Notes: generated by a model not told the origin, from the sequence alone. DNA of 58,113 nucleotides from Eubacteriales bacterium (GCA_045638125.1 JAZUAS010000046.1:1-58113); one strand, 5' to 3'; positions 19,230 through 54,620 are shown, numbered from the stretch's first letter. Program-made: numbers and translations.

Positions 19230-19268
19230 AAACTGAAATCCTTTCAAAATTGTTTTTGCTATGAATCA

Positions 19269-22777: not shown

Positions 22778-22779
22778 AT

Positions 22780-28511: not shown

Positions 28512-28540
28512 AAAAAGACCGCTTCGGCGGTCTTTTTTTT
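28512..28540 (+). terminator. Rho-independent terminator after glpP
   Basis: GACCGC-TTCG-GCGGTC followed by T8. Confidence 0.85.
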
Positions 28541-28737: not shown

Positions 28738-28766
28738 TTGACAAAGATACCATTGGATGTTATAAT
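28738..28766 (+). promoter_or_regulatory. Strong promoter of the surface-polysaccharide locus
   Basis: TTGACA (28738-28743), 17-nt spacer, TGt-TATAAT (28758-28766). Confidence 0.7.
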
Positions 28767-28840: not shown

Positions 28841-30046
28841 ATGAACATCAAGTTTTCCCCCCCGGATATTTCCGAGATCGAGATAGAAGAGGTTGCCGCG
28901 GCACTGCGCTCCGGTTGGATAACCACCGGTCCCAGAACCAAGAAGCTGGAAGCTCAAATTGCCGAATACGTTGGCACAAATAAGTGCGTATGCCTCAATT
29001 CCCAGACCGCCTGTGCGGAGATGGCGCTTCGTGTTCTCGGCATTGGCGAGGGCGACGAGGTCATAACCAGTGCCTATACCTACACTGCGTCTGCTTCGGT
29101 CATTTGTCACACCGGAGCAAAGCTTGTGCTTGTGGATACCGCCCCAAATTCATACGAAATGGACTACTCAAAGCTTGAGGCGGCTATAAACGAGAAAACA
29201 AAGGCAATAATCCCCGTCGATCTTGGCGGCGTACCCTGTGATTACGATAAAATTTTTGAGATAGTCAATAAAAAGCGCAATATGTTCAAGCCCGCAAACG
29301 AGATTCAGGCGGCTATGGGCAGAGTTGCGGTTATGGCAGATACCGCTCACGCTTTCGGTGCGTCTTGGCACGGAAAGATGCTCGGCTCGGTTGCCGATTT
29401 CTCCAGCTTTTCATTCCATGCGGTAAAGAATCTTACTACCGCAGAGGGGGGGGCTTTGACTTGGAGAACAATTGAGGGCATTTCCGACGAGGATATATAC
29501 AAAAAGCTCCAGCTCCTCTCACTGCACGGCCAGTCCAAGGACGCTTTGGCAAAGACTCAGCTTGGCGCGTGGGAATATGACATCGTAGGCCCGTTCTTCA
29601 AGTGCAATATGACCGATATTATGGCGGCTATCGGGCTTGGTCAGATGCAGAGATACCCCGCAATGCTTGAAAGAAGACGCGAGATAATCGCAAAGTACGA
29701 TGCGGCACTCACGCCCCTCGGAGTTGAGGTGCTTGATCATTACAAAGATAATCACACCTCGTCAGGTCACCTCTATCTCACCAGAATTCCGGGTGTTAGC
29801 ATCGAGGAGAGAAACGAGATCATAATAAAGATGGCAGAGCGTGGAATCGCCTGCAACGTCCACTATAAGCCCCTGCCCATGCACACGGCTTATAAAAATC
29901 TCGGCTTTGACATAGCAGATTACCCCAATGCATACGATAGATTTAAAAACGAGATCACTTTACCCCTCCACACCTGTCTTACCGACGAAGAGGTGGACTA
30001 CGTGATCGAAAATTACGTTGAGATAGTTAAGGAGCACATAAGATAA
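28841..30046 (+). CDS. DegT/DnrJ/EryC1/StrS-family PLP-dependent sugar aminotransferase
   Basis: 401 aa. It has FSPPDISEIEIEEVAAALRSGWITTGPRTKKLE...SFHAVKNLTTAEGGA (the Lys of the SFH.(X)K motif). Confidence 0.85.
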   Translation: MNIKFSPPDISEIEIEEVAAALRSGWITTGPRTKKLEAQIAEYVGTNKCVCLNSQTACAEMALRVLGIGEGDEVITSAYTYTASASVICHTGAKLVLVDTAPNSYEMDYSKLEAAINEKTKAIIPVDLGGVPCDYDKIFEIVNKKRNMFKPANEIQAAMGRVAVMADTAHAFGASWHGKMLGSVADFSSFSFHAVKNLTTAEGGALTWRTIEGISDEDIYKKLQLLSLHGQSKDALAKTQLGAWEYDIVGPFFKCNMTDIMAAIGLGQMQRYPAMLERRREIIAKYDAALTPLGVEVLDHYKDNHTSSGHLYLTRIPGVSIEERNEIIIKMAERGIACNVHYKPLPMHTAYKNLGFDIADYPNAYDRFKNEITLPLHTCLTDEEVDYVIENYVEIVKEHIR

Positions 30047-30708
30047 TGACTTACCGTTTTTTTAAGAGATTTTTTGACATTGTGCTGTCCTTGGCGGCAT
30101 TGCCCTTTGTGCTTTTGATAATTGTGATCTTCGCGCCCATCATCTATTTTACCGATAAGGGCCCCGTGTTTTATAACGCAGAGCGTCTCGGATACAAAGG
30201 AAAGACCTTTAAAATGTATAAGCTTCGCTCAATGAAGGTCAATTCTCCCAATCTCAAAAACGCCGACGGTTCTACATACAACGGTGCAAATGACCCCAGA
30301 GTTACCAAGGTCGGTCGCTTTATGAGAAAGACAAGCATAGACGAGTTCCCCCAGTTTATCAACGTGCTCAAGGGTGATATGAGCTTGATAGGCCCTCGCG
30401 CACACCTTACTACCAACTACAAGGGCTATGAGCTGCTTGACGAGCCTCACCAAAAGCGTCTTGACGTGCGCCCCGGTATCACAGGATACAGTCAGGCATA
30501 CTACCGCAACTCGGCAACAAGTCAGCAGAAGATGGAGCACGACGTTTATTATGCAGAGAATGTTTCGCTGTCGCTTGACGTAAAGATCCTCTTCAAAACC
30601 GTGGCATCTGTATTAAAGCGTGAAAATATATACGTTACCGAAGCCTCCACACAGGGCAAGGAGGCAACCGTGGTAGAAGAAAAGCAGACCACCGAGGCAG
30701 GTAAATGA
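30046..30708 (+). CDS. Undecaprenyl-phosphate sugar phosphotransferase (small PglC/WbaP-C-type priming enzyme)
   Basis: 220 aa with one N-terminal TM. It has GPVFY..ERLG..GK.F.MYKLRSM, DPRVTKVGRFMRKTSIDEFPQFINVLKGDMSLIGPR and PGITG. Confidence 0.85.
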   Translation: MTYRFFKRFFDIVLSLAALPFVLLIIVIFAPIIYFTDKGPVFYNAERLGYKGKTFKMYKLRSMKVNSPNLKNADGSTYNGANDPRVTKVGRFMRKTSIDEFPQFINVLKGDMSLIGPRAHLTTNYKGYELLDEPHQKRLDVRPGITGYSQAYYRNSATSQQKMEHDVYYAENVSLSLDVKILFKTVASVLKRENIYVTEASTQGKEATVVEEKQTTEAGK

Positions 30709-31892
30709 TGAAAAAATTATTGATTATCGGCGCGTCAATTCTTCAGCTCCCCGCAATAAAGAGGGCGAAGGAAATGGGATTTTACGTTGGCGTGGTCGAT
30801 TACAACCCGCAGGCGGTGGGAATACCGCTTTCCGACGAGTTCTTTTGCGTCAGCACCATTGACGTGGAGGGAGTTGTGGCAGTTGCCGAGGCGTTTAAAC
30901 CTGACGGCATAATGACCCTTGCCACCGATATGCCAATGCGCTCAATCGCGGCGGCTTGCGAGAGGCTGGGATTGCCCGGAATCTCCCGCGATACCGCCCT
31001 CAAGTCCACCGACAAGGGCGAGATGATAAAATGCTTTGAGGAAAATGGCGTGGAGCACCCCTGGTATTTCATTCTATCCTCAAAGGACGAGCTTAATAAA
31101 ATAAGCGAGAAAATTACCTATCCCTGCATTACAAAGCCTACCGATAATTCGGGTAGCCGAGGAGTGATGCTGGTACATAGCGAAAAGGAGCTTCTCGATG
31201 CCGTTGCTTACAGCTCCGAAAACGGACGCTCGGGCGGTGTCATCGTTGAAGAATATATGAGAGGTCCTGAGGTCAGCGTTGAGATCATCGTGGCAGAGGG
31301 AGAGCCTCATGTGCTTCAGGTCACCGACAAGCTGACTACCGGTGCGCCCCACTTCGTTGAGATGGGTCACAGTCAGCCCAGCCGACTTGGGGATGAAAAT
31401 CTTGAAAAGATACGCGACCTTGCAAGCCGCGCGGTAAAGGCGGTGGGTATTAAAAACGGCCCCGCCCACGTTGAGATCATTTTGACTGAAAACGGACCGA
31501 AAATGGTTGAGCTTGGCGCGAGAATGGGCGGAGATTGCATCACCACCCACCTGGTTCCCCTGTCAACGGGAATTGATATGATCGAGGCGACGATACGCAT
31601 AGCCTGCGGAGAAATGCCCGATCTTGAACCGAAATTCAGGAAGGGAAGTGCAATACGCTTCCTTGACGCGCCCTGCGGAACAATTACCGCAATAGAGGGC
31701 GCAGAGCAAGCCGCAAAGCTTGAGGGTGTCCGCGAGATCTCCTTTACCAAGGGCGTGGGCGACACCGTGGGCGAGATCGGTTCGTCTACCGACCGCGTAG
31801 GCTTCGTTATCGCACAGGCTGAGGACGCCGCAGAGGCGGTCAAGGTCTGCGAGAGGGCGAAGGACGTTTTAAATGTAAAAACTAATATTTGA
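30705..31892 (+). CDS. ATP-grasp carboxylate-amine ligase (CPSase-like ATP-grasp)
   Basis: 395 aa. It has KPTDNSGSRGV, VEEYMRGPEVSVE and VELGARMGG. Confidence 0.7.
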   Translation: MMKKLLIIGASILQLPAIKRAKEMGFYVGVVDYNPQAVGIPLSDEFFCVSTIDVEGVVAVAEAFKPDGIMTLATDMPMRSIAAACERLGLPGISRDTALKSTDKGEMIKCFEENGVEHPWYFILSSKDELNKISEKITYPCITKPTDNSGSRGVMLVHSEKELLDAVAYSSENGRSGGVIVEEYMRGPEVSVEIIVAEGEPHVLQVTDKLTTGAPHFVEMGHSQPSRLGDENLEKIRDLASRAVKAVGIKNGPAHVEIILTENGPKMVELGARMGGDCITTHLVPLSTGIDMIEATIRIACGEMPDLEPKFRKGSAIRFLDAPCGTITAIEGAEQAAKLEGVREISFTKGVGDTVGEIGSSTDRVGFVIAQAEDAAEAVKVCERAKDVLNVKTNI

Positions 31893-31915
31893 TTTTACGA
31901 AAGGAAGAACCGGTA

Positions 31916-33019
31916 ATGAATTATATAAAGATGATGAATGCTTACTTTGGCTTTTATAATTATATGCGAAAAAAAGCTATTAAACGCTCTGATAGATATA
32001 ACTGTATGCAACGTTTGAGTGCTGAGGCTACGAAACTTACCAAAGAGCAAGAAAAAAAGATCAAAGACTTTTGGGCTCCGTATGAGAACGTTACTACCAT
32101 ATTTCATCAGATGTACTATGAAAAAACCGGTGTTTTTTCCGAAAAGTACATTCCAATAGATGTTTACACTAATGTCATTGACGAGTATTTTAATCCCAGA
32201 AATGAAGGCAAATATATTGATAACAAATGTTATTATAATGCTTTTTTCGGAAAAATCAGACAGCCTGAATTTGCGGTGTTGCGAAGTGGTGGTTTTTGGT
32301 ACAACGAACAGATGCAAATGGTAAATGAAGAAGATGTTGCCAATATAGTAGCAAATGAAAACGAACTTTTCGTAAAGGTCGCAACTGAATCTTATGGTGG
32401 AAAAGGCGTAAAATACATAAATAAAGACAACAACATCGTCGAAGAATTTTTTGATTTTGTTAAAAAAACAAATTGTGATATAATTGCGCAAAGAGCTGTT
32501 AAGCAGCATAAGGATATTGCGGCAGTAAACGAAAGCTCTGTGAATACCGTAAGAATGATATCACTGCTCTCCAAAGATGGTCCCAAAATTTACTCCAGTA
32601 TCTTCCGAGTTGGTATGAAAGGGAAAAAAGTTGATAACTACACCAGTGGTGGACTTACTGTTGGAATCAACGAAAACGGTTTACTTAATAAGTATGCTTA
32701 TAACGATAAAGGAGAACGCTTTGATAAGCATCCTTCTAATGGATTTGTGTTTGAAGGATATGAAATTCCCGGATATAAAAAAGCGAGAGAGCTTGTTATG
32801 AAGGCACATCCTATGATCCCTCATTTTAGATTGGTTTCTTTTGATGTTGCAATTGACGAGAATGGTGAACCGATATTTATAGAAGCAAATCTTTGTAAGG
32901 GTTCAGTTGAAATTCACGAGTTCAACAATGGTCCACTTTTTGGAGAAGACACTAAAATGGTTCTCGATGAAGTCTACGGTATTAAGGATAAAAATATTGA
33001 GGGGTCAGCTAAATTATGA
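31916..33019 (+). CDS. ATP-grasp protein, sugar-transfer-associated type (ATPgrasp_ST/TupA-like), paralog A
   Basis: ATG 31916 follows AAAGGAAG. It has LFVKVATESYGGKGV, TVRMISL and a C-terminal PIFIEANLCKGS (E-x-N). It is collinear with 33016-34086. Confidence 0.6.
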   Translation: MNYIKMMNAYFGFYNYMRKKAIKRSDRYNCMQRLSAEATKLTKEQEKKIKDFWAPYENVTTIFHQMYYEKTGVFSEKYIPIDVYTNVIDEYFNPRNEGKYIDNKCYYNAFFGKIRQPEFAVLRSGGFWYNEQMQMVNEEDVANIVANENELFVKVATESYGGKGVKYINKDNNIVEEFFDFVKKTNCDIIAQRAVKQHKDIAAVNESSVNTVRMISLLSKDGPKIYSSIFRVGMKGKKVDNYTSGGLTVGINENGLLNKYAYNDKGERFDKHPSNGFVFEGYEIPGYKKARELVMKAHPMIPHFRLVSFDVAIDENGEPIFIEANLCKGSVEIHEFNNGPLFGEDTKMVLDEVYGIKDKNIEGSAKL

Positions 33020-34086
33020 GTTTTTACCGTTTAAAAAAGTGTTGTTTTGAATTTTATCACAAGTGCAGAAGAATAGGTATAAAGCGTTTATGGAGAAAAA
33101 GATATAAGGCTCGTTTGAGAAACACTGCCCGCCTTACTGCTGAACATAAAATAAGATTAAAAGAGTTTTATGCGCCATATGCCAAAGTTTCACCTGTTTT
33201 TCATCAAGTATACTATGAGAGCACAGGGAATTTTTCTGAAAAGTATTTACCGGCAGACTTGTATTTTAATGTGATTGACGAGTATTTTAATGACCGATCA
33301 GAAGCCAAATATCTTGACAATAAGTGCTATTACAAAAAGCTTTTTCCCGGTATAAGACAGCCCGAATATGCAATAGCGCGAGTTGGAAAATATTGGTTCG
33401 ACGAAAATGATAATGTGATCAGTTATGAAAAGGTAAAAGAGATAATTTCCAAAGAGAGTGAACTTTTTATTAAAGTGGCAACCGATTCTTGCGGTGGCAG
33501 TGGCGTATCTTATATAAGTCGCGAAAAAGGCGATATGGTTAATCAGTTCGAGAAATTTGAATGCAAAACTGATTTCATTGCTCAAAGAGCTTTGCACCAG
33601 CATAAGGATATGTCGGCTATTAACGAAAGCTCGGTTAATACAATACGTGTTATATCATTTTTGACTGAAGATGAAGTAAAAATATATTCTTCGATTGTTC
33701 GAGCAGGTCAAAAAGGATCAAAATGCGACAATTCCACCGGCGGTGGTGTGTCAATAGGAATTGACGATAACGGAAATCTGAAAAAATATGGATATGAAAT
33801 TTCCGGAAAAAGATATGATAGGCATCCTACAAATGATTTTGTTTTTGAAGGACATCCTATTCCTTCGTTTAACAAAGTAACGGAGTTGGTAAAGAAAGTT
33901 CATCCAATGGTATCCCACTTTAGACTTGTTTCTTGGGATATTTGTATTGCCGAAGATGGTGAACCTGTTTTATTGGAGGCTAATTTGTGCCGAGGCAGTC
34001 TTGACGTTCACCAATATAACAACGGTCCTCTTTTTGGAGAGGATACCAAGAAAATATTGGATGAAGTTTTTGGTAAAAACAAGTAA
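33016..34086 (+). CDS. ATP-grasp protein, sugar-transfer-associated type, paralog B
   Basis: 356 aa. It has LFIKVATDSCGGSGV, TIRVISF and PVLLEANLCRGS. The start overlaps the previous stop (ATGA). Confidence 0.6.
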   Translation: MSFYRLKKCCFEFYHKCRRIGIKRLWRKRYKARLRNTARLTAEHKIRLKEFYAPYAKVSPVFHQVYYESTGNFSEKYLPADLYFNVIDEYFNDRSEAKYLDNKCYYKKLFPGIRQPEYAIARVGKYWFDENDNVISYEKVKEIISKESELFIKVATDSCGGSGVSYISREKGDMVNQFEKFECKTDFIAQRALHQHKDMSAINESSVNTIRVISFLTEDEVKIYSSIVRAGQKGSKCDNSTGGGVSIGIDDNGNLKKYGYEISGKRYDRHPTNDFVFEGHPIPSFNKVTELVKKVHPMVSHFRLVSWDICIAEDGEPVLLEANLCRGSLDVHQYNNGPLFGEDTKKILDEVFGKNK

Positions 34087-34109
34087 AATGGTTAAATATG
34101 AGGTAACTT

Positions 34110-35201
34110 ATGGCAATTCTTTCAATAAAATTCAAAAGTTTTCTTAAGGGAACAAAATTAGGAACATTTTTGAGAAGACAACGCTGGAATAAAGGGATCT
34201 TGTCGGAATCCGGAATTCATAAAAGTATTTCACGATATATGGGCGAAATTTCAGATGTTGAACGAGAGAAAATTTTTAGTGATATAGTATCTATGGCCAA
34301 AAAATATCGTTTTAGTGCTGAAGAGTACTTTTGCTATCACTTTCAAGAAAAATCTGAAGATGAAAGAAAGACCTTTATCTCTGATTTGAATCGAATTGAT
34401 TTTTGCGAAAAGTTAAATAAGGCTACCAATTTGCCGTATTTCGACGATAAAATGCAAAGTGCCCAAACATTCGGACGTTATTATGGCCGAGATGTTTGCG
34501 GTGTGAAAAGCAATAGTGATATTGATGATTTGAAGGCGTTTTTGAAAAAACATCCTCGATTTATGTTTAAGCCGCTTACCGGAACATGTGGACAAGGAAT
34601 TTCTATTATGACGATTTCTCACAATGAAACCGAAAAAATAGAGCAACTTATTCGTGAGAATTGTTCATCCGGTAAAGATGGATTCATTGTAGAAGAATTA
34701 ATAATTCAAGTACCTGAGATGGCACAGTTCCATCCGTCCTCGCTTAATACTATCCGCGTTGCAACCGTGAAATTTGATGATGGAGTTGAGGTTATTGAGG
34801 CGTTTTTCAGAACTGGCAGAGGTGGCAACATTGTTGACAACGCCGGTGCCGGAGGTGTATTCGGAACCATTGACATTGAAACCGGTATCATTGATGCCGC
34901 TGGCGACGAATATGGAAATCTTTATGAGGTTCATCCCGATTCCGGCTTACCTATTAAGGGCTTTGCTATCCCGCGCTGGGAGGAAGCAAAAGCTATGGCA
35001 ATAGAGCTTGCTGATATAGTTAAGGGAAATCGTTATTCGGGTTGGGATCTTGCTTTGACTGAAAACGGTTGGATCATGATTGAAGGAAATGCGCGCGGAC
35101 AGTTTGTTTGGCAGATGCCTCGTCAAAAAGGTTGGCTGTCTGAAGCAAATGCAATTCTCAGAAGACTTGGATTAAATGAAATGAAAAAACTTTCTATATA
35201 A
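34110..35201 (+). CDS. ATP-grasp protein, sugar-transfer-associated type, paralog C (more divergent)
   Basis: 363 aa. It has FMFKPLTGTCGQGI, VEELIIQ, TIRVATV, NAGAGGVFG and WIMIEGNARG. Confidence 0.6.
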   Translation: MAILSIKFKSFLKGTKLGTFLRRQRWNKGILSESGIHKSISRYMGEISDVEREKIFSDIVSMAKKYRFSAEEYFCYHFQEKSEDERKTFISDLNRIDFCEKLNKATNLPYFDDKMQSAQTFGRYYGRDVCGVKSNSDIDDLKAFLKKHPRFMFKPLTGTCGQGISIMTISHNETEKIEQLIRENCSSGKDGFIVEELIIQVPEMAQFHPSSLNTIRVATVKFDDGVEVIEAFFRTGRGGNIVDNAGAGGVFGTIDIETGIIDAAGDEYGNLYEVHPDSGLPIKGFAIPRWEEAKAMAIELADIVKGNRYSGWDLALTENGWIMIEGNARGQFVWQMPRQKGWLSEANAILRRLGLNEMKKLSI

Positions 35202-35216
35202 AATTTAGGAGATTTT

Positions 35217-36521
35217 ATGAAATTAAAGAACAAAACCCTTCTTCTTATGGGCGGTGGCGCATACGTTAAGGATATTGTAAAATATAAGAACGAAAAGGAT
35301 TTTCGCATCGTGGCTCTCGGCAGAGATGCCAACACTCCTATTGCAAGGATAGCGGATGCCTTTTATCAGATCGACACACAGAACGTTGACGCGGTCTGTG
35401 AGGTAGTAGAAAAAGAGGGAGTAAACGGTATTTTCGTAGGCGCGTCCGAGGTAAATATCGCCCCCGCCATCACTGTAAGCGAGAGAACAGGATGTAATTT
35501 CTATACAAACAGAAAGCAGTGGGATATTCTTGCCAACAAGGCAAAATTTAAGGAATACTGCCGCAAATACGGAGTTCCGGTAGTGCCCGAGTTTGATATT
35601 AAGCCCGGATATACCAAGGCAGACGTGGAAAAGCTTCAGTTTCCCGTACTCCTTAAGCCTACCGATAGCTCGGGAGCGAGAGGAATGAATGCTTGTTACC
35701 GCGCTGAGGACTTTGATGCCCTTTATGAAGAAGCTTTGCGTTGGTCGCCTAAAAAGGAAGTCATTGTTGAGGAATTGATAACAGGTGCTGACGAGGTCTT
35801 CTTCCAGTACACTCTGCAGGACGGGGAGTGCTCGCTTACCTCTTGCTTTACCAAGGTGTTCGTTAAGACCGAGAACAAGTCCTTGATACTTCCCATTTTC
35901 CACATGTATCCCAGCCAATATATCGAAAACTATTTCTCGGAGGTTCACGAGAGCGTTAAGGCGATGTTTCGCGCCATAGACGTGAGAGATGGTGTTATGA
36001 CTCTCCAAAGCTTCTATAGAAACGGACGATTCTATGTGTTTGAGGCCGGATTCAGAATGGGCGGCGCGCAGAATTACATATTCTCCGAGTACCAGAACGG
36101 AAATAATTCACTTAACTATATGATCAATTACGCTCTTACGGGCAGCATGAACGATAGACCCATTGTTGAGAGCGATAATGCTCGATTCCGCCACCCCTGC
36201 TGCAACTATTATGTTGGTTTGAAGGCAGGTGTTATTGCCAAAATGGGCGGTGTTGCAGAGGCGGAAAAACTGCCGGGTGTCCTTAATGTAACGGTTATGG
36301 CACATGAGGGTGAGGAAATATTGGATACCAACGCTCTTGAGCGTGTTTGCTTGAGAATTCACGTGGTTGGTGAAACGCCCGAAAAGCTTGCTGAAAATCT
36401 TGTGCGTATCAGTGACACGCTTAATATAATCTCCACCGAAGGAGAGGATATGCAGCTTGAACCCCTTTCTTATGATCGTTGTCTTGATGCCATTCACGGC
36501 GCGACATCATTTAACAAATAA
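35217..36521 (+). CDS. ATP-grasp carboxylate-amine ligase (second CPSase-like ATP-grasp)
   Basis: 434 aa. It has LLMGGGAY, LKPTDSSGARGM, VEELITG and VFEAGFRMGG. Confidence 0.7.
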   Translation: MKLKNKTLLLMGGGAYVKDIVKYKNEKDFRIVALGRDANTPIARIADAFYQIDTQNVDAVCEVVEKEGVNGIFVGASEVNIAPAITVSERTGCNFYTNRKQWDILANKAKFKEYCRKYGVPVVPEFDIKPGYTKADVEKLQFPVLLKPTDSSGARGMNACYRAEDFDALYEEALRWSPKKEVIVEELITGADEVFFQYTLQDGECSLTSCFTKVFVKTENKSLILPIFHMYPSQYIENYFSEVHESVKAMFRAIDVRDGVMTLQSFYRNGRFYVFEAGFRMGGAQNYIFSEYQNGNNSLNYMINYALTGSMNDRPIVESDNARFRHPCCNYYVGLKAGVIAKMGGVAEAEKLPGVLNVTVMAHEGEEILDTNALERVCLRIHVVGETPEKLAENLVRISDTLNIISTEGEDMQLEPLSYDRCLDAIHGATSFNK

Positions 36522-36532
36522 GGAGAAAATCA

Positions 36533-37897
36533 ATGCCAATTGAATTTTTGTATTTGGCTGTCGTGTTTGCGGTAGCGATCATTGGATTTATGGTGATCAA
36601 GCGTCCTCTTTATGAGTGTATGTTTGCTTCATTCATAGTGTTGGTTGCTATAACAGGTACGTGGGCTAATATTGGAAATTATATATGGGATGCGCTCAAA
36701 GAGCCCACGATGTACATAATTTTTGTGTTCATTATTTCAGCTCATTTGCTTTCAAAAACCAGTGTTATCGATGATTGTATTGCTATAATACTTTCTATCT
36801 TCGGCAAGCTGCCCGGAGGAGCCGGCTTCGTTTCAATTATAGGAAGCTCATATATGGGCTCTCTTTCGGGAAGCGGCCCCGGTAACGTGGCAACCACAGG
36901 TGTATTCACCATCCCCGCGATGATCAAATCGGGATTTCCCCCACACCTTGCCGCAAATGTTGAGGCACACGCATCAACTATGGGTAATATGATCCCTCCC
37001 GCAGGTATGATCGGTATAGCTTTTGCCGCACTGAATACCCTGTATCCCGGGAAATATACCGAGTCCCAGTATTGGATCCTTCTTTGGGGAGTGGCGCTCT
37101 GGTTTATTCTTCAGCGTATAGTAACCCTTTATTTCATGTGCCTTTACTACAAGGTAAAGCCTATGTCTAAGGAAGACGTTCCGCCCGTTTGGCAGTCGAT
37201 CAAAAAGGGATGGAAGGCGATATTTTTGCCTATCATCGTATTTGTACCGTTCCTGCTTACCAGTAATTTTGATGAATTTCTCAAGTCGCGCATAGGCGAT
37301 GCGGGCACAAAGGCGCTCAATAATAGCCTGCTTCTCTTGATTCCATCTATTATCGTTATTGCGGGTATTTTGCTTTCGGGTAGAAAGGGAATCAAGAGTG
37401 TTACTCCCCGCGTGCTTTATGAGGGAATTGAAAAGGGTATGCTTAAAGTTGTGCCCACCGCATCATTGGTGCTCTTTGCATATTTCGTAAGCAATGTTTT
37501 TGCGGATCTTAACGTAGAGGTTGCCATTGGTGAGTTTATCAGCTCGCTTAATATGAGCCATTGGTTGCTTTGTCTGACTATCCCGCTTTTTACGGCGATT
37601 CTCGGTATGCTTCTGCCCGGCTCTACTCAGGTCAAGATCTTTGGCGGAATTATTATTTCCATTATGGCGGCTGCCGGAGGTAATCCTATGCTTGCGGCTG
37701 CTATGCTCCCTTGCATTTGCGGTGCTATGCATGGCGTAACCCCACCTTATTGCGCATGTGTTTATACGGGAATGGGTATTGCTCAATCCGAGCTTAAGCC
37801 GACACTCAAAAACTGTATGATCTGGGTAGCGCTTCACTATATTATGTCGGTTATTATCTGGCTCGAATGGCTCCCCATCTGGGGATTGATAAAGTAA
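36533..37897 (+). CDS. DctM-like (TRAP large-subunit / ion-transporter superfamily) permease, orphan
   Basis: 454-aa polytopic protein. GSLSGSGPGNVATTGVFTIPAMIKSGF...GNMIPPAG resembles the DctM signature (GS..A...A.G....P.M...G...........IPPS). No DctP or DctQ gene is nearby. Confidence 0.5.
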   Translation: MPIEFLYLAVVFAVAIIGFMVIKRPLYECMFASFIVLVAITGTWANIGNYIWDALKEPTMYIIFVFIISAHLLSKTSVIDDCIAIILSIFGKLPGGAGFVSIIGSSYMGSLSGSGPGNVATTGVFTIPAMIKSGFPPHLAANVEAHASTMGNMIPPAGMIGIAFAALNTLYPGKYTESQYWILLWGVALWFILQRIVTLYFMCLYYKVKPMSKEDVPPVWQSIKKGWKAIFLPIIVFVPFLLTSNFDEFLKSRIGDAGTKALNNSLLLLIPSIIVIAGILLSGRKGIKSVTPRVLYEGIEKGMLKVVPTASLVLFAYFVSNVFADLNVEVAIGEFISSLNMSHWLLCLTIPLFTAILGMLLPGSTQVKIFGGIIISIMAAAGGNPMLAAAMLPCICGAMHGVTPPYCACVYTGMGIAQSELKPTLKNCMIWVALHYIMSVIIWLEWLPIWGLIK

Positions 37898-37907
37898 GGA
37901 GGTTGCC

Positions 37908-38192
37908 ATGAGAAAAAAGATATTTGCAATTCTCAACAAAATATACGGTGTTATGATGACCGTATCATTCTTTGGCGGCTGCTTGCCTCTTATACCTTTT
38001 ATCGTTGCACTCTGTGTTGGCGGAGAGACGGGGGAAAGTATTGCGGTGTTCCTTAAAGATCAGTACTACCCTTGGGTTATCGTTATCGGATGTGTTGCGA
38101 TCCTTGTAGGTCTTGTAGCTATGTATATAGGCAAGATGGAGGGGCTTTCGGTGAAGAAGATCAACACCGATAATAATGAGAAAAAGGATTGA
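37908..38192 (+). CDS. Small membrane protein (hypothetical), possibly a permease accessory subunit
   Basis: 94 aa with 2-3 hydrophobic segments. AAGGAGG RBS, 10 nt after the permease stop. Confidence 0.45.
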   Translation: MRKKIFAILNKIYGVMMTVSFFGGCLPLIPFIVALCVGGETGESIAVFLKDQYYPWVIVIGCVAILVGLVAMYIGKMEGLSVKKINTDNNEKKD

Positions 38193-38227: not shown

Positions 38228-39445
38228 ATGAAAATATTGTTTTTAGCAAGTTCATTGAGAGTACCTAATCCGTCGTGGCATCTTATGAAGGCACTTATGG
38301 AGGATGTTCTTGATGCGGGAATAGAGATTCATGCAATACAACGTCATCGTTCCGATGCTACTATGCCTCCTTTTCCCGACAGTATATTGAACCATAAGAA
38401 TTTCTCATATACGGAAGTGACGTGCAAGCCAATTAATAAAAAGAAATTTGTTAAGCGTTATCTTGAGGCAATGGGATACTCTTGGAAGTTGCGTAAACAT
38501 ATAAGAAAGAATAACGATTACGACGCGATCTTTATGCAATCGTCGATCAATTCTTTCTATACTATGTGCTATGCCCGTCATTTTGCAAAGAAGCGTCCTG
38601 TGATCTTCAACAGTCAGGATATGTTCCCTGGAAGTGCTATTGCCAACGGCTCTATGCCCCAAAAGTGGATGCAGAAGATATTTTATACGATGCAGCGTTA
38701 CGCATACAAAAAGGTAACTATATTCACCGCAATATCCGAGGATATGAAGATCAAATTGATGGAGCAGGGAGTTCCCGAGGAGAAGATCAAGGTCATCGTC
38801 AACTGGTACGACGATGCCGCCGTAAAGGAGATCTCTTGGGAGGATAACCGCTTCGTCAAGCAGGAAAATATGTCGCGCGATAAGTTCTACGTGCAATATG
38901 CGGGAACTATGGGTACAAACTTTAATCCTGACGTTATTCTCGATGCCGCAGCGCGGTTGAAGGATAAAAAGGACATAATTTTCCAGATGATCGGAAATGG
39001 TGTTCGCCGCGACAATTTTGAGAAAAACGCCAAGGAGCGTGGGCTTGACAACATCATATTTTTGCCGCTTCAGCCCCAGGATATGGTTGCCGACGTTTAT
39101 AGCGCTTGCTCTGTGTGTCTCATACCCTTGAAACGCGGAGTTATCGGAAATTCCGTGCCCAGCAAGGCGGGACTTCTTATGGCTTGTCGCCGCGTTATCG
39201 TCAATTCTGTTGACTCGGGAAGCGATTACGGCGATATGTTCGAGCGAGAGAAGATAGGCTTCTCTGCAGACATTGAGGACGGAGAAAAGATCGCTCGTGA
39301 CATTCTCTATCTCTATGAAAATCCCGACGTGCGCGAGGAATATGCAAATAGAGCCAAGGAATACGGAGAAAAAGAGTATTCCAGAACTGTTAACACTAAA
39401 AAGTATATAGAATTATTTAAAAGCTTTGAAAAACAGGAGAATTAA
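38228..39445 (+). CDS. Glycosyltransferase family 4 (WbuB-like)
   Basis: 405 aa with a GT-B fold pattern. The C-terminal half has the EX7E-like region PSKAGLLMACRRVIVNS. Confidence 0.7.
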   Translation: MKILFLASSLRVPNPSWHLMKALMEDVLDAGIEIHAIQRHRSDATMPPFPDSILNHKNFSYTEVTCKPINKKKFVKRYLEAMGYSWKLRKHIRKNNDYDAIFMQSSINSFYTMCYARHFAKKRPVIFNSQDMFPGSAIANGSMPQKWMQKIFYTMQRYAYKKVTIFTAISEDMKIKLMEQGVPEEKIKVIVNWYDDAAVKEISWEDNRFVKQENMSRDKFYVQYAGTMGTNFNPDVILDAAARLKDKKDIIFQMIGNGVRRDNFEKNAKERGLDNIIFLPLQPQDMVADVYSACSVCLIPLKRGVIGNSVPSKAGLLMACRRVIVNSVDSGSDYGDMFEREKIGFSADIEDGEKIARDILYLYENPDVREEYANRAKEYGEKEYSRTVNTKKYIELFKSFEKQEN

Positions 39446-39448
39446 TTA

Positions 39449-40504
39449 ATGAAGGGTAAGTATAAGATCGGTGTATGGGGACAGTTTGGCGGCGGCAAGC
39501 AGGTCGCGGACGGTCAGGCGGTCAAAACCATCATTTTTGCCGAGGAATTGAGAAAAAAATACGGCGCCGATAAGGTATTCACAGTTGATACCAATAATTG
39601 GCGCAAGCATCCCTTCAGATTGTTCTTTAACACCTTAAAAATGAACGCAAAATGCGAAAACGTCTGCATTTTGCCTGCGGATAACGGATTTAAGATCTGT
39701 GTTCCACTGCTTAATTTTACTAACGCGTTCTTCCGCAGAACCATGTATTACGTTGTAATAGGCGGATTTTTGCCGGCTCTTCTCAAGCGTGAGCCGAAAT
39801 ACTTAAAAATGCTGAAAAAGTACAGAGCGCATTTTCCCGAGACCGAAAACCTCAAGAAGGATATGGAGGATGCGGGACTGGAGAATGTTCACGTGCTCCA
39901 CAACCTCAAGCGTTTGAATACGCTGTCGCCCTCTGAAGTCGAGGTCTGTCAAGAAAAAGAGGTAAAGGTTTGTACCTTTGCCCGTATAACCGAAACCAAG
40001 GGAGTTGCCTACGCTATCGATGCGGTCAAATTGGCAAACGAAAAGCTTGGCGGTAATTATATAAAATTGGATATGTACGGCATCTGCCCGCCATCATATC
40101 AGCCTACTTATGATAAGCTTTTGGCGGAAAACGGTGATTTTGTAACCTACGGCGGCGTGGTTGATTTCAACAAAACCACCGAGGTGCTGAGAAATTATTT
40201 TGCAATGTTGTTTCCCACCTTTTATCACGGAGAAGGCTTCCCGGGAACCGTTATCGATGCTTATAATGCGGCGCTTCCTATGATAGCGACCCGTTGGAAT
40301 TACAATGCCGACGTAATCGAGGACGGAGTTAACGGGATTTTGGTTCCCATCAAGGATGCTGAGGCAATGTGTAACGCCTTGCTTGAGCTTTATAACGATC
40401 GTGATAGAGCGCATAAGATCGCTATTAACAATCTGAACTCCGCGGCACAGTATACCCCCGACAGAGTGTTGGAAAAGTTTTATAAGTTTGTTGATCAAGC
40501 TTAA
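39449..40504 (+). CDS. Glycosyltransferase (GT4/GT1-like)
   Basis: 351 aa. It has GEGFPGTVIDAYNAALPMIATRWNYNADVIEDGVNGILV (GT4 E-x7-E region). Confidence 0.7.
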   Translation: MKGKYKIGVWGQFGGGKQVADGQAVKTIIFAEELRKKYGADKVFTVDTNNWRKHPFRLFFNTLKMNAKCENVCILPADNGFKICVPLLNFTNAFFRRTMYYVVIGGFLPALLKREPKYLKMLKKYRAHFPETENLKKDMEDAGLENVHVLHNLKRLNTLSPSEVEVCQEKEVKVCTFARITETKGVAYAIDAVKLANEKLGGNYIKLDMYGICPPSYQPTYDKLLAENGDFVTYGGVVDFNKTTEVLRNYFAMLFPTFYHGEGFPGTVIDAYNAALPMIATRWNYNADVIEDGVNGILVPIKDAEAMCNALLELYNDRDRAHKIAINNLNSAAQYTPDRVLEKFYKFVDQA

Positions 40505-40521
40505 TTTAAGGAGTAAATCGC

Positions 40522-41589
40522 ATGAAAAAACTGCTAATTGTCATTCCGTCACTTCAACAGGGCGGAGGTCAAAAGTTTGTTATGGATCTTGCCAAAGGTA
40601 TTGATGCCACTAAATATCAAGTTAAGATATTAGTGTATTATCCAAAGAGTGATTCTATTTTTGATCGTTTTGCAGAAGAGAATCAAATGGATATGGTTTA
40701 TCTTGATAAAAGAGTTGGTTTGGACATATCCTTTTTCAAGAAAGTGCGCGCAGTTGTAAGAGAATATCGTCCCGATGTTATTCACACCCATCTCGACAGT
40801 ATGCTTTATCTCCTTCCGGTTTACAAAAGGAAACAGATTAAGTTGCACACGGTTCATACACTTGCTGAAAAGGAGACGGGCGGCTTGCAGGGAGTAGTGA
40901 GATTCTTTGCATATAAAATTCTCGGTGTTCTTCCTGTGGGTATAAGCGACACGGTTGCTGACAGTATTGCGCGTGAGCATAAGATCAAGCGCGACAAGGT
41001 TCCCGTGGTTTACAACGGTGTTGATTGCAGGCGTTACGATCTTCCCAAAATTAAATCAGATAAAATCCGTTTTGTTACGGTTGGTAACATATATTATGTT
41101 AAAAATTACTCGTTTTTAGTCGATTGCTTCGCCGAGGTTGCCCGTGAAATTGAAAACGTATCTCTCACTATCGTTGGGGATGGCGTGCTTCGCGGTAAGA
41201 TAGAGGAGCTATCGCGAAGATTGGGAGTTGCCGATAAGGTTCGTGTAACCGGTGTGGTTTCTGACGTAGAAAATTATCTGGCAGATGCCGATATATATGT
41301 AGCTTCGTCAAAATTTGAGGGGTTGCCTATTTCAATGTTAGAGGCTATGTCTGCCGGACTCCCGGTTATTTCAACGAATGTTGGCGGTGTTCCCGATATT
41401 ATAAAAACCGGTGAAAATGGTATTCTTGTTGCTTCAGGTGATAGGGAAGGATACGTTAAAGCTCTTCGTGAGCTGATAACCGATGCGGAAAAGAGAAGCG
41501 AGTACTCGAGAAGAGCAAAGATTTTTTCTGCAAAATATGATGAAACTGTAACAATTGCTGGGTATCAGGCCCTCTATGACGGTGTTTGA
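40522..41589 (+). CDS. Glycosyltransferase family 4
   Basis: 355 aa. It has N-terminal GGGQKFV and C-terminal FEGLPISMLEAMSAGLPVISTNVGGVPDIIKTGENGILV. Confidence 0.8.
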   Translation: MKKLLIVIPSLQQGGGQKFVMDLAKGIDATKYQVKILVYYPKSDSIFDRFAEENQMDMVYLDKRVGLDISFFKKVRAVVREYRPDVIHTHLDSMLYLLPVYKRKQIKLHTVHTLAEKETGGLQGVVRFFAYKILGVLPVGISDTVADSIAREHKIKRDKVPVVYNGVDCRRYDLPKIKSDKIRFVTVGNIYYVKNYSFLVDCFAEVAREIENVSLTIVGDGVLRGKIEELSRRLGVADKVRVTGVVSDVENYLADADIYVASSKFEGLPISMLEAMSAGLPVISTNVGGVPDIIKTGENGILVASGDREGYVKALRELITDAEKRSEYSRRAKIFSAKYDETVTIAGYQALYDGV

Positions 41590-41603
41590 AAAAGGAGAAA
41601 ACA

Positions 41604-42791
41604 ATGCGTATTTTGTTATATAGCGATTTTGCGCTTCCGGATAGTTGTGCAGATGCTACACGAGTAATTAATTTTGCAAAACTTTTGCGTGATCTTGGAC
41701 ATGATGTGACGCTTCAGGGGGTTCAGTATAAAGCCGACGGAGAATTAGAGGGAAACTATGATGGTTTGTCATTCAAAATGTTTCGTGCAGGTCAGTGGTT
41801 TGGTTTCCAGGCTCCCCGGCGTGTTCGCGGTCTTGAGCGTGATATTACGAATTATTTGCATGAACACTTGGGAGACCGAGCCTTCGATGTGATTTTTCTT
41901 TCGGGGATTTATTATGATTTTACGAAGCCTTTCCTCAAATATTCCAAGCGTTGCGGAGCAAAATTGATCGTTAATTCTTTGGAGTGGTACGACAAGAAGA
42001 ACACGTATTTTATTGGATTGCGCGGTAAGATCACTTTTGTGAAAAATCGTATAGCACTTAGGCATATATTTGTAAAAATGAAGAATATTTTTGCAATCAG
42101 CTCGCTTTTGGATGATTATTACAAGTCGAGAGGCTGCAATACTGTGACGGTGCCCACTATTGTGGATATGAGGGAATACGAAAGTGTAGCAAATACTGAA
42201 AAATCACGCGATGGAATAGTACGTATCGCCTATGCCGGTACGCCGGAAAGAAAGGATTATGTGGTTAATGCAATTCGCTCACTTTCTCTTCTTTCCAAGG
42301 AAGAAAGAGAGAGGATAGAGCTTCATTTTTACGGCCCGAGCCAACAATATCTGACTAAGCTTGCGCTTACACCCGAAGAGCTTGAGGCTTGTAGAGAACG
42401 TGTCATTTGCCACGGCAGAATTCCTTATCAAGAAGTAAAGGAAAGGATCGCCGCGGCAGACTTTACAGTGCTTTTGCGCCCCAATAAGCGTTATGCAAAC
42501 GCGGGATTCCCCACGAAGGTGGGCGAGAGTATGGCTTGCGGCACACCGGTGATAGCTAATATTACCAGTGATCTCGGAAGGTATATTTTAGACGGCAAGA
42601 CGGGTATAGTATGCAAAGACGAGACTCCCGAGGCTTGCGCCGAGGCATTTCGACGCGCGATTGCGATGAGTGAGGATGAGCGCAAGGAAATGCATGCGGC
42701 GACTCTTGCTATGGCAAAAAAAGCCTTTGATTACAGAGCCTATAACGAGGCTATAGAAAAATTTTTACAAGCTTGTTTGACAAGAGGATAA
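41604..42791 (+). CDS. Glycosyltransferase family 4
   Basis: ATG 41604 follows AAAGGAG. It has NAGFPTKVGESMACGTPVIANITSDLGRYILDGKTGIV. Confidence 0.7.
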   Translation: MRILLYSDFALPDSCADATRVINFAKLLRDLGHDVTLQGVQYKADGELEGNYDGLSFKMFRAGQWFGFQAPRRVRGLERDITNYLHEHLGDRAFDVIFLSGIYYDFTKPFLKYSKRCGAKLIVNSLEWYDKKNTYFIGLRGKITFVKNRIALRHIFVKMKNIFAISSLLDDYYKSRGCNTVTVPTIVDMREYESVANTEKSRDGIVRIAYAGTPERKDYVVNAIRSLSLLSKEERERIELHFYGPSQQYLTKLALTPEELEACRERVICHGRIPYQEVKERIAAADFTVLLRPNKRYANAGFPTKVGESMACGTPVIANITSDLGRYILDGKTGIVCKDETPEACAEAFRRAIAMSEDERKEMHAATLAMAKKAFDYRAYNEAIEKFLQACLTRG

Positions 42792-42794
42792 TTT

Positions 42795-43961
42795 ATGAAA
42801 AAATGTTTGTTTGTGATGCACGCTCTGGATATGGGCGGCTCGGGCACGTCACTGCTCAACCTTCTTTCTCTTTATCAGGATAGAGGAGAGACCTGCGATC
42901 TGTTTTTAATGGCGCAGGAAGGAGCTTTGTTAGATAGAGCAAGAGCAGTTGCAAATCTTTTGCCTGAGGACAAGCTCCTGTCGTCGGTAATGGTTTCCAA
43001 AAAAGGCCTGAAGAAGCGAGGATTTTCCGCTTTCTTTATTCGCGCCTGCTTTGTCGTTGCCCGCCGTTTGTTCGGAACGGGACGCACTGTTAGATGGGTG
43101 TATAAAAAAAGTGCCAAGCGTTTTGAGGGCAAGTACGATACGGTTATCGCTTATCAGGAGTCGTTGCCTACCGAGTACGCGCAGTATATTCCCGCCAAAC
43201 GCCGAGTTGCGTGGTGTCACTCAAACTATGATGCTTTTTCATCAGGTAAAAGCGACGAGATGCAAAAGTCACTTTATGAAAAATACGACCATATTGTCTG
43301 TGTAACAAATGTGATCAAGCAGGCTTTGATTGATAGACTTGGATGTTCGCCGGATTCCGTTTCCGTTGTATATAACACCATCCCATCCAAATTCATCAAT
43401 AATCGTGCAGATGCAGAGAAGGTAGATATTGTGAAAAAGCAGTTTGTTTTCGTTTCCATGGGGCGCTTTTCAAACGAGAAACGTTTTGAACGCGCGGTGC
43501 TTGCCGCAGAAGCTCTTAAGAGCCGCGGTGTTGATTTTGCGTGGTATATCCTTGGTAACGGACCGCTTTTTGAAGACATAAATAAAATGGTAGAGGAAAA
43601 GAATCTATCGGCTGAAGTCATCCTCACAGGTTTGAAAATAAACCCCTTTCCATATCTCAAGCAATCGGATTGCTTTGTTATGACATCGGAAAACGAGGGA
43701 CAGCCAATGGTGCTTAACGAGGCGTTGACTCTCGGTGTTCCTACCATAACCACGGGATTTCCTTCAGCGTGCGAGGTAGTAAACGACGGAGTAAACGGTA
43801 TTATCGTGCCGAATACCGACGAGGGCGTGATTGAAGGTGTTATTCGTTTTACCGAGGATGCGGTTCTTCGCGAGCAAATCAGGCGCGGAGCGAATGATTT
43901 TTTATATGATAATGAAAGTATTTTGAGCCAAGTTTCTCAAATTGCTACTTTGGAGAATTGA
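42795..43961 (+). CDS. Glycosyltransferase family 4
   Basis: 388 aa. It has GGSGTSLLNLL and SENEGQPMVLNEALTLGVPTITTGFPSACEVVNDGVNGIIV. Confidence 0.8.
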   Translation: MKKCLFVMHALDMGGSGTSLLNLLSLYQDRGETCDLFLMAQEGALLDRARAVANLLPEDKLLSSVMVSKKGLKKRGFSAFFIRACFVVARRLFGTGRTVRWVYKKSAKRFEGKYDTVIAYQESLPTEYAQYIPAKRRVAWCHSNYDAFSSGKSDEMQKSLYEKYDHIVCVTNVIKQALIDRLGCSPDSVSVVYNTIPSKFINNRADAEKVDIVKKQFVFVSMGRFSNEKRFERAVLAAEALKSRGVDFAWYILGNGPLFEDINKMVEEKNLSAEVILTGLKINPFPYLKQSDCFVMTSENEGQPMVLNEALTLGVPTITTGFPSACEVVNDGVNGIIVPNTDEGVIEGVIRFTEDAVLREQIRRGANDFLYDNESILSQVSQIATLEN

Positions 43962-43969
43962 TTTCGATT

Positions 43970-48902: not shown

Positions 48903-48938
48903 GAGTATCCCCGAAGAATAATTTTTGAGGAATAAAAA

Positions 48939-52205: not shown

Positions 52206-52207
52206 TT

Positions 52208-54597: not shown

Positions 54598-54620
54598 TTT
54601 TTTTGAGAAAGGAGCGCAGA

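Follow-up and report, generated by a model that had tools for sequence, protein, structure and literature searches.

Predicted ATP-grasp ligase module with a DctM-family transporter in a Wzx/Wzy-type glycan locus of an Eubacteriales bacterium

Results

Gene content and organization of the ligase locus

The 58,113-nucleotide stretch of DNA analyzed here (Eubacteriales bacterium, GCA_045638125.1, JAZUAS010000046.1:1-58113), hereafter the window, carries a surface-glycan locus in which five consecutive ATP-grasp ligase genes, a DctM-family permease gene and a gene encoding a 94-aa membrane protein follow a priming sugar-phosphate transferase. The seven open reading frames (ORFs) were confirmed on the plus strand at 30705-38192, in agreement with an earlier reading made from the DNA alone (the sequence-only reading), and the motifs listed there for the ligases (ELGARMGG, EAGFRMGG, FIEANL, LLEANL and MIEGNA) are all present in the translations. 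The features of this part of the locus are as follows.

28512-28537, glpP terminator, 11-bp stem, preceding the promoter
28738-28766, plus strand, promoter of sigma-70-type consensus, 12/12 hexamer match, extended -10 TG
28841-30046, plus strand, DegT-family sugar 4-aminotransferase, Spr1654 homolog (PF01041, 2.6e-93)
30046-30708, plus strand, priming polyprenyl-phosphate sugar-phosphate transferase (PGT), 220 aa (PF02397, 7.8e-63, 211.7 bits)
30705-31892, plus strand, LalA, ATP-grasp protein of the L-amino-acid ligase (LAL) type (ATP-grasp_4, PF13535, 2.9e-25, 89.2 bits; LAL_C2, 2.9e-20, 72.7 bits)
31889-33019, plus strand, ST1, ATPgrasp_ST (PF14397, 1.5e-38)
33016-34086, plus strand, ST2, ATPgrasp_ST (PF14397, 9.6e-42)
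34110-35201, plus strand, ST3, ATPgrasp_ST of a second subfamily (PF14397, 8.2e-55)
35217-36521, plus strand, LalE, divergent LAL-like ATP-grasp protein (CPSase_L_D2, PF02786, 1.4e-9, 38.2 bits; ATP-grasp_4, 5.7e-8, 33 bits)
36533-37897, plus strand, large subunit of a DctM-family secondary transporter, about 12 transmembrane (TM) helices (PF06808, 1.3e-44, 153 bits, 3-408 of 413 profile positions)
37908-38192, plus strand, sm94, 94 aa, two predicted TM helices, no Pfam family

The genes of the glycan run are spaced by -4 to +35 nt, and the promoter at 28738-28766 follows the glpP terminator; for these reasons the run is predicted to be a single operon from the DegT start onwards. The PGT gene shares 1 nt with the DegT gene and 4 nt with lalA. 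The true start of ST1 is probably the ATG at 31916, which is preceded by an AGGAAG ribosome-binding site.

Base composition sets the three ST genes (31889-35201) apart as a low-GC island with a GC content of 0.35-0.39 and a third-codon-position GC (GC3) of 0.30-0.32 (ST1, 0.32; ST2, 0.30), flanked by DegT, PGT and LalA genes with a GC3 of 0.57-0.60 (LalA, 0.60) and by LalE, DctM and sm94 genes with a GC3 of 0.47-0.51. ST2 and ST3 are singletons when 15 billion proteins are clustered at 90% identity. The low GC content and the lack of relatives at that level for ST2 and ST3 point to a recent horizontal insertion of the ST cassette.

ATP-grasp ligases of four lineages

All five ligases scored above the curated cut-off of an ATP-grasp model (Pfam cut-offs, 27 bits for PF13535, 29.4 for LAL_C2, 19.8 for PF02786 and 31.4 for PF14397), and in family alignments their ATP-binding lysine and Mg-binding residues show no or only conservative substitutions. 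The profile check proposed in the sequence-only reading was thereby passed by five of five, and we regard the genes as intact and as encoding predicted ATP-grasp ligases. They represent four lineages rather than five copies of one gene; LalA and LalE share 22% identity.

LalA has the architecture of the LAL family, an ATP-grasp_4 core followed by LAL_C2. Its solved relatives are 4dim, an uncharacterised Anaerococcus protein (2.6e-35), the Bacillus licheniformis L-amino-acid ligase BL00235 (1.5e-31) and BacD (5e-19). In an alignment of 11 LalA sequences, K144 is conserved in at least 95% and E183 and E268 in at least 70%. At least 5,816 homologs at E <= 1e-30 were found among 8,000 candidates scored, none of them named more specifically than "ATP-grasp" or "biotin carboxylase". 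LalE is a divergent relative whose LAL_C2 score (26.6 bits) falls just under the cut-off of 29.4, and its K147, E185, Q264, E/D276 and R280 are conserved in an alignment of 17 orthologous sequences. LAL-type proteins carry a glycine where the ATP-grasp E-x-N motif has its asparagine, as in ELGAR. LalA and LalE had been described as CPSase-like; they are LAL-like instead.

The three ST proteins matched PF14397 with 133-186 bits, and the polysaccharide gene context that goes with this family was found as well. They had been announced as paralogs of either the sugar-transfer-associated or the TupA-like kind; the first assignment was borne out and the second was not, as PF14305 (TupA-like) gave no match for ST1-3 at E <= 0.01. 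By BLASTP, ST1 and ST2 are 54% identical and ST2 and ST3 28% identical. K154, D313, E325 and N327 are invariant in 47 ST sequences including ST1 and ST2. No sequence-level relative of ST3 was found in the PDB. An AlphaFold2 (AF2) model of ST3 (predicted local distance difference test score, pLDDT, 92.9) gave RimK and LysX/ArgX as its best Foldseek matches, with E values from 1e-9 to 1e-7. In this predicted model, residues 1-125 appear as an all-helical N-terminal domain that has no RimK counterpart, followed by a RimK/LysX-like catalytic body. ST3 also showed a weak match to a RimK-related glutamate-ligase model. Enzymes of the RimK/LysX type attach an amino acid to a macromolecular acceptor by activating a carboxylate of that acceptor. 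A literature search returned nothing specific on PF14397/ATPgrasp_ST or on an orphan DctM protein.

Amino sugar and priming pair

The DegT-family protein aligns over residues 2-395 with PDB entry 6EWJ (E 1.5e-158, 531 bits). This entry is Streptococcus pneumoniae Spr1654, the aminotransferase assigned to (predicted for) the synthesis of UDP (uridine diphosphate)-AATGal for teichoic acid, and a 4-amino group is implied by the very name of AATGal (PMC5936713). The adjacent PGT is small and aligns with the EPS_sugtrans model in its C-terminal catalytic part only, so that the two marks of an AATGal-type priming module, close aminotransferase homology and a neighbouring small PGT, are both present. 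The Spr1654 match would supply a candidate nucleophile for acylation.

Profile scans of the 23 locus genes and the other large ORFs of the window detected no acetyltransferase domain. The sequence-only reading had noted this and had counted it towards aminoacylation. The absence stands, and it is weak evidence because the 4-amine of AATGal is normally left free in finished polymers.

A route in which FnlA, encoded further downstream, provides the DegT substrate in a PseB/PseC-like manner was considered and is disfavoured, the Spr1654 match being far stronger than that to PseC. An AATGal product is preferable on the homology available.

A DctM-family permease with a constant small partner

The DctM protein scored below the NCBIfam cut-offs for dctM and TRAP_fused, its best NCBIfam match being the M part of TRAP_fused, and gave only local matches to solved TRAP permeases (best 5.7e-8). 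It is represented by more than 120 clusters at 76-100% identity, all from metagenomes or metagenome-assembled genomes (MAGs) of Clostridia. DctP, TAXI and DctQ domains were absent from the 23 locus genes and the other large ORFs of the window, and a DctP/TAXI binding protein was likewise lacking from the window and from the relatives annotated with Pfam (L001-L004, L077 and L078). Thus, of the parts of a TRAP transporter, the DctM subunit is present and the four-TM DctQ and the DctP/TAXI binding protein are not.

For comparison, about 50 related loci (numbered with an L) were assembled, including 44 true relatives (L005-L048) from a scan of one genome per species; the window proteins were mapped onto all of them, and Pfam-annotated contigs added detail. 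The sm94 gene follows the permease gene in 43 of 43 assessable genome loci. The pairing holds in relatives at 39-45% identity from Tissierella, Soehngenia, Desulfoscipio, Desulfallas and Desulfotruncus (Desulfotomaculum-group) and from spirochaetes, and sm94 identity co-varies with DctM identity (Spearman 0.76). The sm94 family has 106 representatives among 1.84 billion proteins, nearly all of them stand-alone proteins of about 80-140 aa. A hidden Markov model of sm94, run against every ORF of 79 loci, with canonical fused TRAP permeases among them, revealed no relationship to DctQ or to the C-terminal part of TRAP permeases.

Because sm94 is constant and co-evolves with the permease and no binding protein lies nearby, the permease is best seen as the large subunit of a predicted two-component transporter that works without a binding protein, with sm94 as its clade-specific small subunit. 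The permease had been called an orphan; it does lack DctP and DctQ and yet is not alone.

Characterised DctM-family members are importers. The transporter is 65-92% identical across 17 glycan loci, whereas the adjacent ligase lineages are 22-29% identical to each other, and this conservation beside diverging ligases fits a single imported building block that is joined to different acceptors. The contexts of the relatives conflict, Peptidase_C26 in some and Ddl with a glutamate racemase in others pointing to amino-acid or amide metabolism, and PrpD in a third kind to di- or tricarboxylates. The likely cargo is therefore given as a class only, a carboxylate that may be an amino acid, an amide or a di-/tricarboxylate.

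The first of these contexts has the gene order GntR-AtuA-SSF-Peptidase_C26-DctM-sm94 in 12 loci (L035-L045 and L048, from the Desulfotomaculum-group, a spirochaete and Clostridiales), where distant DctM-sm94 pairs belong to a conserved and apparently catabolic operon with an amidase; Peptidase_C26 is the gamma-glutamyl-hydrolase family. The second is the order Ddl-DctM-sm94 in four loci (L028, L030, L031 and L033) near MurB or Glu/Asp racemase. In Acidaminobacter, Tissierella and Soehngenia, a gene of the D-Ala-D-Ala-ligase family lies directly upstream of DctM and sm94, beside murB-rapZ-yvcK or a Glu/Asp racemase gene, which hints at a link of this transporter clade to cell-wall amino acids. 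The third is L021, where two PrpD-family genes flank close relatives of the transporter. Three loci (L014, L034 and L041) carry two different DctM-sm94 pairs in tandem, suggesting two imported substrates.

These contexts raise the question whether the transporter has anything to do with the ligases, or is a mobile cassette for nutrient uptake, carried along as a hitch-hiker in variable glycan loci. The same pair does occur in the catabolic-looking operons with GntR-AtuA-SSF-Peptidase_C26 or PrpD, and one array (L079) has ligases without it. However, in the window the pair belongs to the same operon as LalE, with gaps of 10-15 nt. In gut Clostridia, the gene immediately before DctM-sm94 encodes a LAL-like ATP-grasp protein in 19 glycan loci (17 non-redundant genome loci, L077 and L078), and these adjacent ligases fall into four deeply divergent lineages. 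In distant taxa the pair again adjoins an ATP-grasp gene, there of the Ddl type or PylC-like (L023, L028, L030, L031 and L033). We therefore consider hitch-hiking quite improbable and keep the reading in which the transporter serves the ligases.

Variable ligase cassettes between two fixed blocks

Across the related loci, two fixed blocks were recognized, DegT-PGT-LalA and ATP-grasp-DctM-sm94, separated by a variable cassette of 0-3 further ligases and often a GNAT acetyltransferase gene. The first block stands at the head of the locus in nine independent cases (the window, L004, L007, L009, L022, L025 and L077-L079), and PGT-LalA is also found in L075. The cassette is empty in L025 and holds a GNAT in L001, a second LAL-like ligase and a GNAT in L078, a second LAL-like ligase and an unannotated ORF of 172-187 aa (of GNAT-like size and in the same position) in L022, and a second ligase, a GNAT and a pyruvyl transferase in L077. 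It consists of ST1 and ST3 in L007, of ST1, ST2 and ST3 in the window, and of a second LAL gene, an unassigned gene, ST1 and ST3 in L009, which also reaches five ATP-grasp genes in total. ST3 lies directly upstream of the LalE-DctM-sm94 block in five loci. GNAT genes stand between or beside ligases in L001, L018, L019, L023, L077 and L078.

Five ligases in one glycan locus had been judged unusual. They do mark the upper end, but of a continuum from none to five, and the window is not unique in this respect, at least one further species-level genome (L009) having five as well. The survey of gut Clostridia suggested at the same time confirmed that the module recurs in related loci and varies between them.

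In a second architecture (L008, L013 and L018-L020), PylC-like and/or LalE-type ligases with DctM-sm94 are joined directly to RmlC-like, DegT, RmlA and RmlB genes, which form a complete cassette for a dTDP (deoxythymidine diphosphate)-4-amino-6-deoxyhexose. Because this architecture also carries DegT, the constant companion of the ligases is a sugar 4-aminotransferase, and hence an amino sugar.

That constancy bears on a different assignment of the acceptor, in which the ligases would amidate glycan carboxyls of uronic acids with amino acids or amines and the DegT product would stay a free amine, giving a zwitterionic polymer. The sole characterised TupA/ST-like capsule enzyme, Cj1438C, activates the C6 carboxylate of glucuronic acid (GlcA) (PMC11800379). 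The RimK/LysX-like fold likewise implies a carboxylate borne by the acceptor, and two ATP-grasp arrays without the transporter point the same way, since L075 (PGT-LalA-ST-LAL) has the UDP-sugar 6-dehydrogenase Ugd and in L076 a distant ST homolog overlaps the gene for such a dehydrogenase and is accompanied by two TupA-like genes. In the window, by contrast, no UDP-sugar 6-dehydrogenase or other uronic-acid gene was found, the partner that stays constant is DegT and not Ugd, and LalA and LalE are of the LAL type and not of the TupA/ST type. Uronic-acid amidation by the whole set is unlikely in our judgement; carboxyl amidation could hold for ST1-3 alone if the carboxylate is that of an acidic first residue.

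L076, a metagenome contig with an exopolysaccharide locus, is probably a different multi-ligase glycan locus that amidates uronic acids; besides the overlapping ATPgrasp_ST and UDP-sugar 6-dehydrogenase genes and the two ATPgrasp_TupA genes, it has two pyruvyl transferase genes. The remaining array without the transporter, L079, reads DegT-PGT-LalA-LalE. In L026 and L029, LalE and DctM/sm94 are convergent and lie outside glycan loci, and for this reason LalE, DctM and sm94 may be an autonomous unit. L029, a MAG of Anaerofustis stercorihominis, carries them beside a LysR regulator gene and a gene for a 1586-aa surface protein with Ig repeats.

Remaining genes of the glycan locus and of the window

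Downstream of sm94 the glycan locus continues with the following features.

38228-43961, plus strand, five GT4-family glycosyltransferases (Glycos_transf_1 and Glyco_trans_1_4 matches)
43958-45520, plus strand, divergent Wzx-type flippase, 520 aa, about 12 TM helices (hhalign probability 97.4%, E 1e-11, 444 columns)
45517-46827, plus strand, probable Wzy polymerase, multi-TM (Wzy_C, 24.9 bits, below the 31.7 cut-off)
46893-51157, plus strand, phosphonate branch: fusion of nucleotidyltransferase and phosphoenolpyruvate (PEP) mutase, iron-dependent alcohol dehydrogenase (Fe-ADH) and phosphonopyruvate decarboxylase (Ppd)
51159-55805, plus strand, FnlA/FnlB/FnlC-like genes for a 6-deoxy-L-N-acetylhexosamine (6-deoxy-L-HexNAc) and an NTP_transf_5 gene

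The flippase candidate gave no Pfam, NCBIfam or PDB sequence match and was recognizable by profile-profile comparison only, its partner being a profile of 13 Polysacc_synt flippase ORFs from related loci; its single-sequence AF2 model reached a pLDDT of 43.7 only. The earlier designation of the locus as Wzx/Wzy holds because of this alignment, with the Wzy_C match remaining sub-threshold.

The fusion protein of the phosphonate branch combines NTP_transf_3, CTP_transf_like and PEP mutase (PepM) domains, the Fe-ADH matches the phosphonate PsrA model weakly, and the branch contains no 2-aminoethylphosphonate transaminase. This gene content predicts a nucleotide-activated decoration of the 2-hydroxyethylphosphonate type on the same glycan. 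PepM was absent within 10 kb from all related loci with the ligase module, and the phosphonate branch is on this account an independent decoration.

PepM, Ppd and Fe-ADH, 9 kb downstream of the ligases, could also be read otherwise, together with the fact that the nearest characterised relatives of LalA, BL00235 and BacD, make free dipeptides and that LalE with DctM/sm94 exists outside glycan loci in L026 and L029. The product would then resemble bacilysin or rhizocticin, as a free small peptide or a phosphonopeptide perhaps made via PepM, with DctM/sm94 as an exporter or self-resistance pump and the glycan genes as mere neighbours. Several findings argue against it. PepM here is fused to two nucleotidyltransferase domains, a form seen for phosphonate decoration of glycans. 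The ligase genes are translationally coupled between PGT and the glycosyltransferases in a single operon, and export is disfavoured by the importing role of characterised DctM-family members. We hold a free peptide to be very improbable, and the phosphonopeptide version of it was rejected, as PepM accompanies the ligase module, within 10 kb, in none of the related loci.

The Fnl-like genes matched FnlA with 520 bits, a WbcJ-type reductase with 346 bits and wecB with 216 bits, and Fnl and NTP_transf_5 genes recur beside the ligase module in L001, L013 and L016-L019. The NTP_transf_5 gene (PF14907, an uncharacterised nucleotidyltransferase; 54603-55805) travels with the FnlA/B/C genes in L016, L018, L019 and L001. 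Some loci have it inside the set, separating FnlA from FnlB or FnlB from FnlC, and this suggests that it acts in the 6-deoxy-L-HexNAc pathway.

Elsewhere in the window, two giant ORFs of 1480 and 1732 aa on the minus strand (9355-13797 and 14049-19247) are essentially without Pfam match. Their neighbours are genes for an AraC regulator, for a polysaccharide lyase of family PL8 (20483-22807) and for a carboxypeptidase of family M14 (22780-23796), and 8314-9156 encodes a tyrosine recombinase.

Discussion

Proposed mechanism

The gene content, the intact catalytic residues, the operon, the synteny and the RimK-like fold of the ST3 model together favour a reading that we consider rather likely, namely that the priming amino sugar is aminoacylated stepwise by the ATP-grasp ligases and that an imported carboxylate is used in the process. 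The sequence-only reading had already proposed a glycan bearing amino acids or a short peptide, with the permease supplying the acid; synteny, GNAT genes and the predicted ST3 fold now lend this comparative support, and its acetyltransferase argument carries little weight. The substrates and the order of steps set out below are those that we infer from these data.

The Spr1654-like DegT protein would make a 4-amino-4,6-dideoxy-HexNAc of the AATGal type, and the small PGT would load it onto undecaprenyl phosphate. On this priming sugar, as either the UDP-sugar or the lipid-linked form, an amide-linked amino-acyl or oligopeptide substituent would be built residue by residue by stand-alone ligases. 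LalA, as a LAL-type enzyme, would convert a free acid to the acyl phosphate and start the chain on the sugar 4-amine; a sugar amine as acceptor of LalA and LalE is probable from their gene context. Further LAL-type enzymes would extend the chain towards its N-terminus, and GNATs, where present, would cap it. The RimK/LysX-like ST1-3 would activate an acceptor carboxylate and add an amine, so extending or branching the chain, with the free carboxylate of an acidic first residue or of a sugar acid as putative substrate. LalE would add a carboxylate building block presumably imported by the adjacent DctM-sm94 pair without a binding protein. The modified unit would then be extended by the five GT4 enzymes, flipped and polymerised into a surface glycan of the Wzx/Wzy type.

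The position of GNAT genes beside the ligases is as expected for N-acetyl capping of the peptide N-terminus. Two precedents make the chemistry plausible: N-(N-acetyl-aminoacyl) and N-aminoacyl 4-amino sugars are known in O-antigens (PMC7685785), and amide formation in a capsule has been demonstrated biochemically for the TupA-like ATP-grasp domain of Cj1438C (PMC11800379).

Several points weigh against this mechanism. The chemistry of every member of the module is a prediction only. The retaining UDP-GlcNAc 4,6-dehydratase needed for AATGal was not found in the window, whose sole dehydratase is FnlA-like and inverting; the retaining enzyme may be encoded elsewhere in the genome. As the AATGal amine is normally free, the gene content does not require its acylation. 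Since characterised LALs join two free amino acids, a free dipeptide could be the first product of LalA and LalE. The acceptor carboxylate that RimK-like ST enzymes would need is offered only by an acidic first residue or a uronic acid. The L079 array does without the transporter, the LalE and DctM/sm94 genes of L026 and L029 do without a glycan locus, and the PrpD context of L021 allows the cargo to be a di-/tricarboxylate and not an amino acid.

A bolder form of the proposal, which we put forward as doubtful, is that gut Clostridia build a true oligopeptide stem of 3-5 residues on the priming-sugar 4-amine of a Wzy-polymerised surface glycan. Such a murein-independent "peptido-glycan" would be made by a cassette-swappable line of stand-alone ATP-grasp ligases, its peptide would differ in length and composition from strain to strain like a serotype, and a new two-subunit class of DctM transporter, independent of binding proteins, would collect one of the building blocks from the gut.

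Significance

That ATP-grasp ligases of glycan loci add amino acids had been predicted, as the Pfam family name records, and proven in one case. New here are the conserved arrangement of two blocks around a swappable ligase cassette, its tight link to a priming pair of the AATGal type, the obligatory transporter of DctM and a two-TM protein without a binding protein, and how abundant the module is among uncultured gut Clostridia.

Decoration with amino acids alters how charged and how antigenic bacterial surface glycans are and how phages or the immune system recognize them, and the enzymes are known for very few cases. A ligase module that is abundant, modular and variable from locus to locus is probably a major source of surface diversity in the gut microbiota, and its stand-alone amide ligases could serve glyco-engineering. 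The DctM-sm94 pair, if the assignment is true, would be a DctM-family system without DctQ and binding protein that ties the uptake of gut metabolites to the composition of the cell surface.

Comparison with known systems

The closest precedent is Cj1438C of the Campylobacter jejuni HS:2 capsule, which is likewise an ATP-grasp enzyme of a polysaccharide locus that forms an amide on a glycan; its domain is fused to a GT2 domain and joins the GlcA carboxylate to serinol or ethanolamine phosphate (PMC11800379). Its TupA-like family, PF14305, is related to PF14397 of the ST genes, although ST1-3 do not match PF14305. Unlike Cj1438C, the five enzymes of the window are stand-alone proteins and belong to three types; a transporter dedicated to them is encoded alongside, and genes for uronic acids are absent.

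Glycans with amide-linked amino acids or polyglutamate are known from the teichuronopeptide of Bacillus halodurans (TupA) and from Escherichia coli O121, O114 and O123 (PMC8153356; PMC7685785). Mostly, these systems are not ATP-grasp arrays of the kind found here, and none has the DctM-sm94 transporter. TRAP and TAXI-TRAP systems share with the window a full-length large subunit of the DctM family; they differ in that the window lacks DctP/TAXI and a four-TM DctQ and has a two-TM partner of about 90 aa instead.

With the L-amino acid ligases (BacD/YwfE, BL00235 and the RizA type), LalA shares ATP-grasp_4 and LAL_C2, LalE being a divergent relative. The known enzymes belong to antibiotic or dipeptide pathways, where they couple two free L-amino acids, whereas the LalA and LalE genes are wedged between PGT and the glycosyltransferases. 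RimK, LysX and ArgX, the best structural matches of the ST3 model, have the same Lys and D..E-x-N set; their identity to ST3 is 12-19%, a 125-residue helical domain replaces the pre-ATP-grasp domain, and the ST context does not indicate a protein C-terminus as acceptor.

The start of the locus resembles the pneumococcal AATGal pair (Spr1654 and the adjacent small PGT), with DegT followed by a small Bac_transf PGT. WcfR/WcfS of the Bacteroides fragilis polysaccharide A locus are a comparable AATGal priming pair. In the AATGal systems the 4-amine is free and no ATP-grasp gene follows, whereas in the window LalA is translationally coupled to the PGT.

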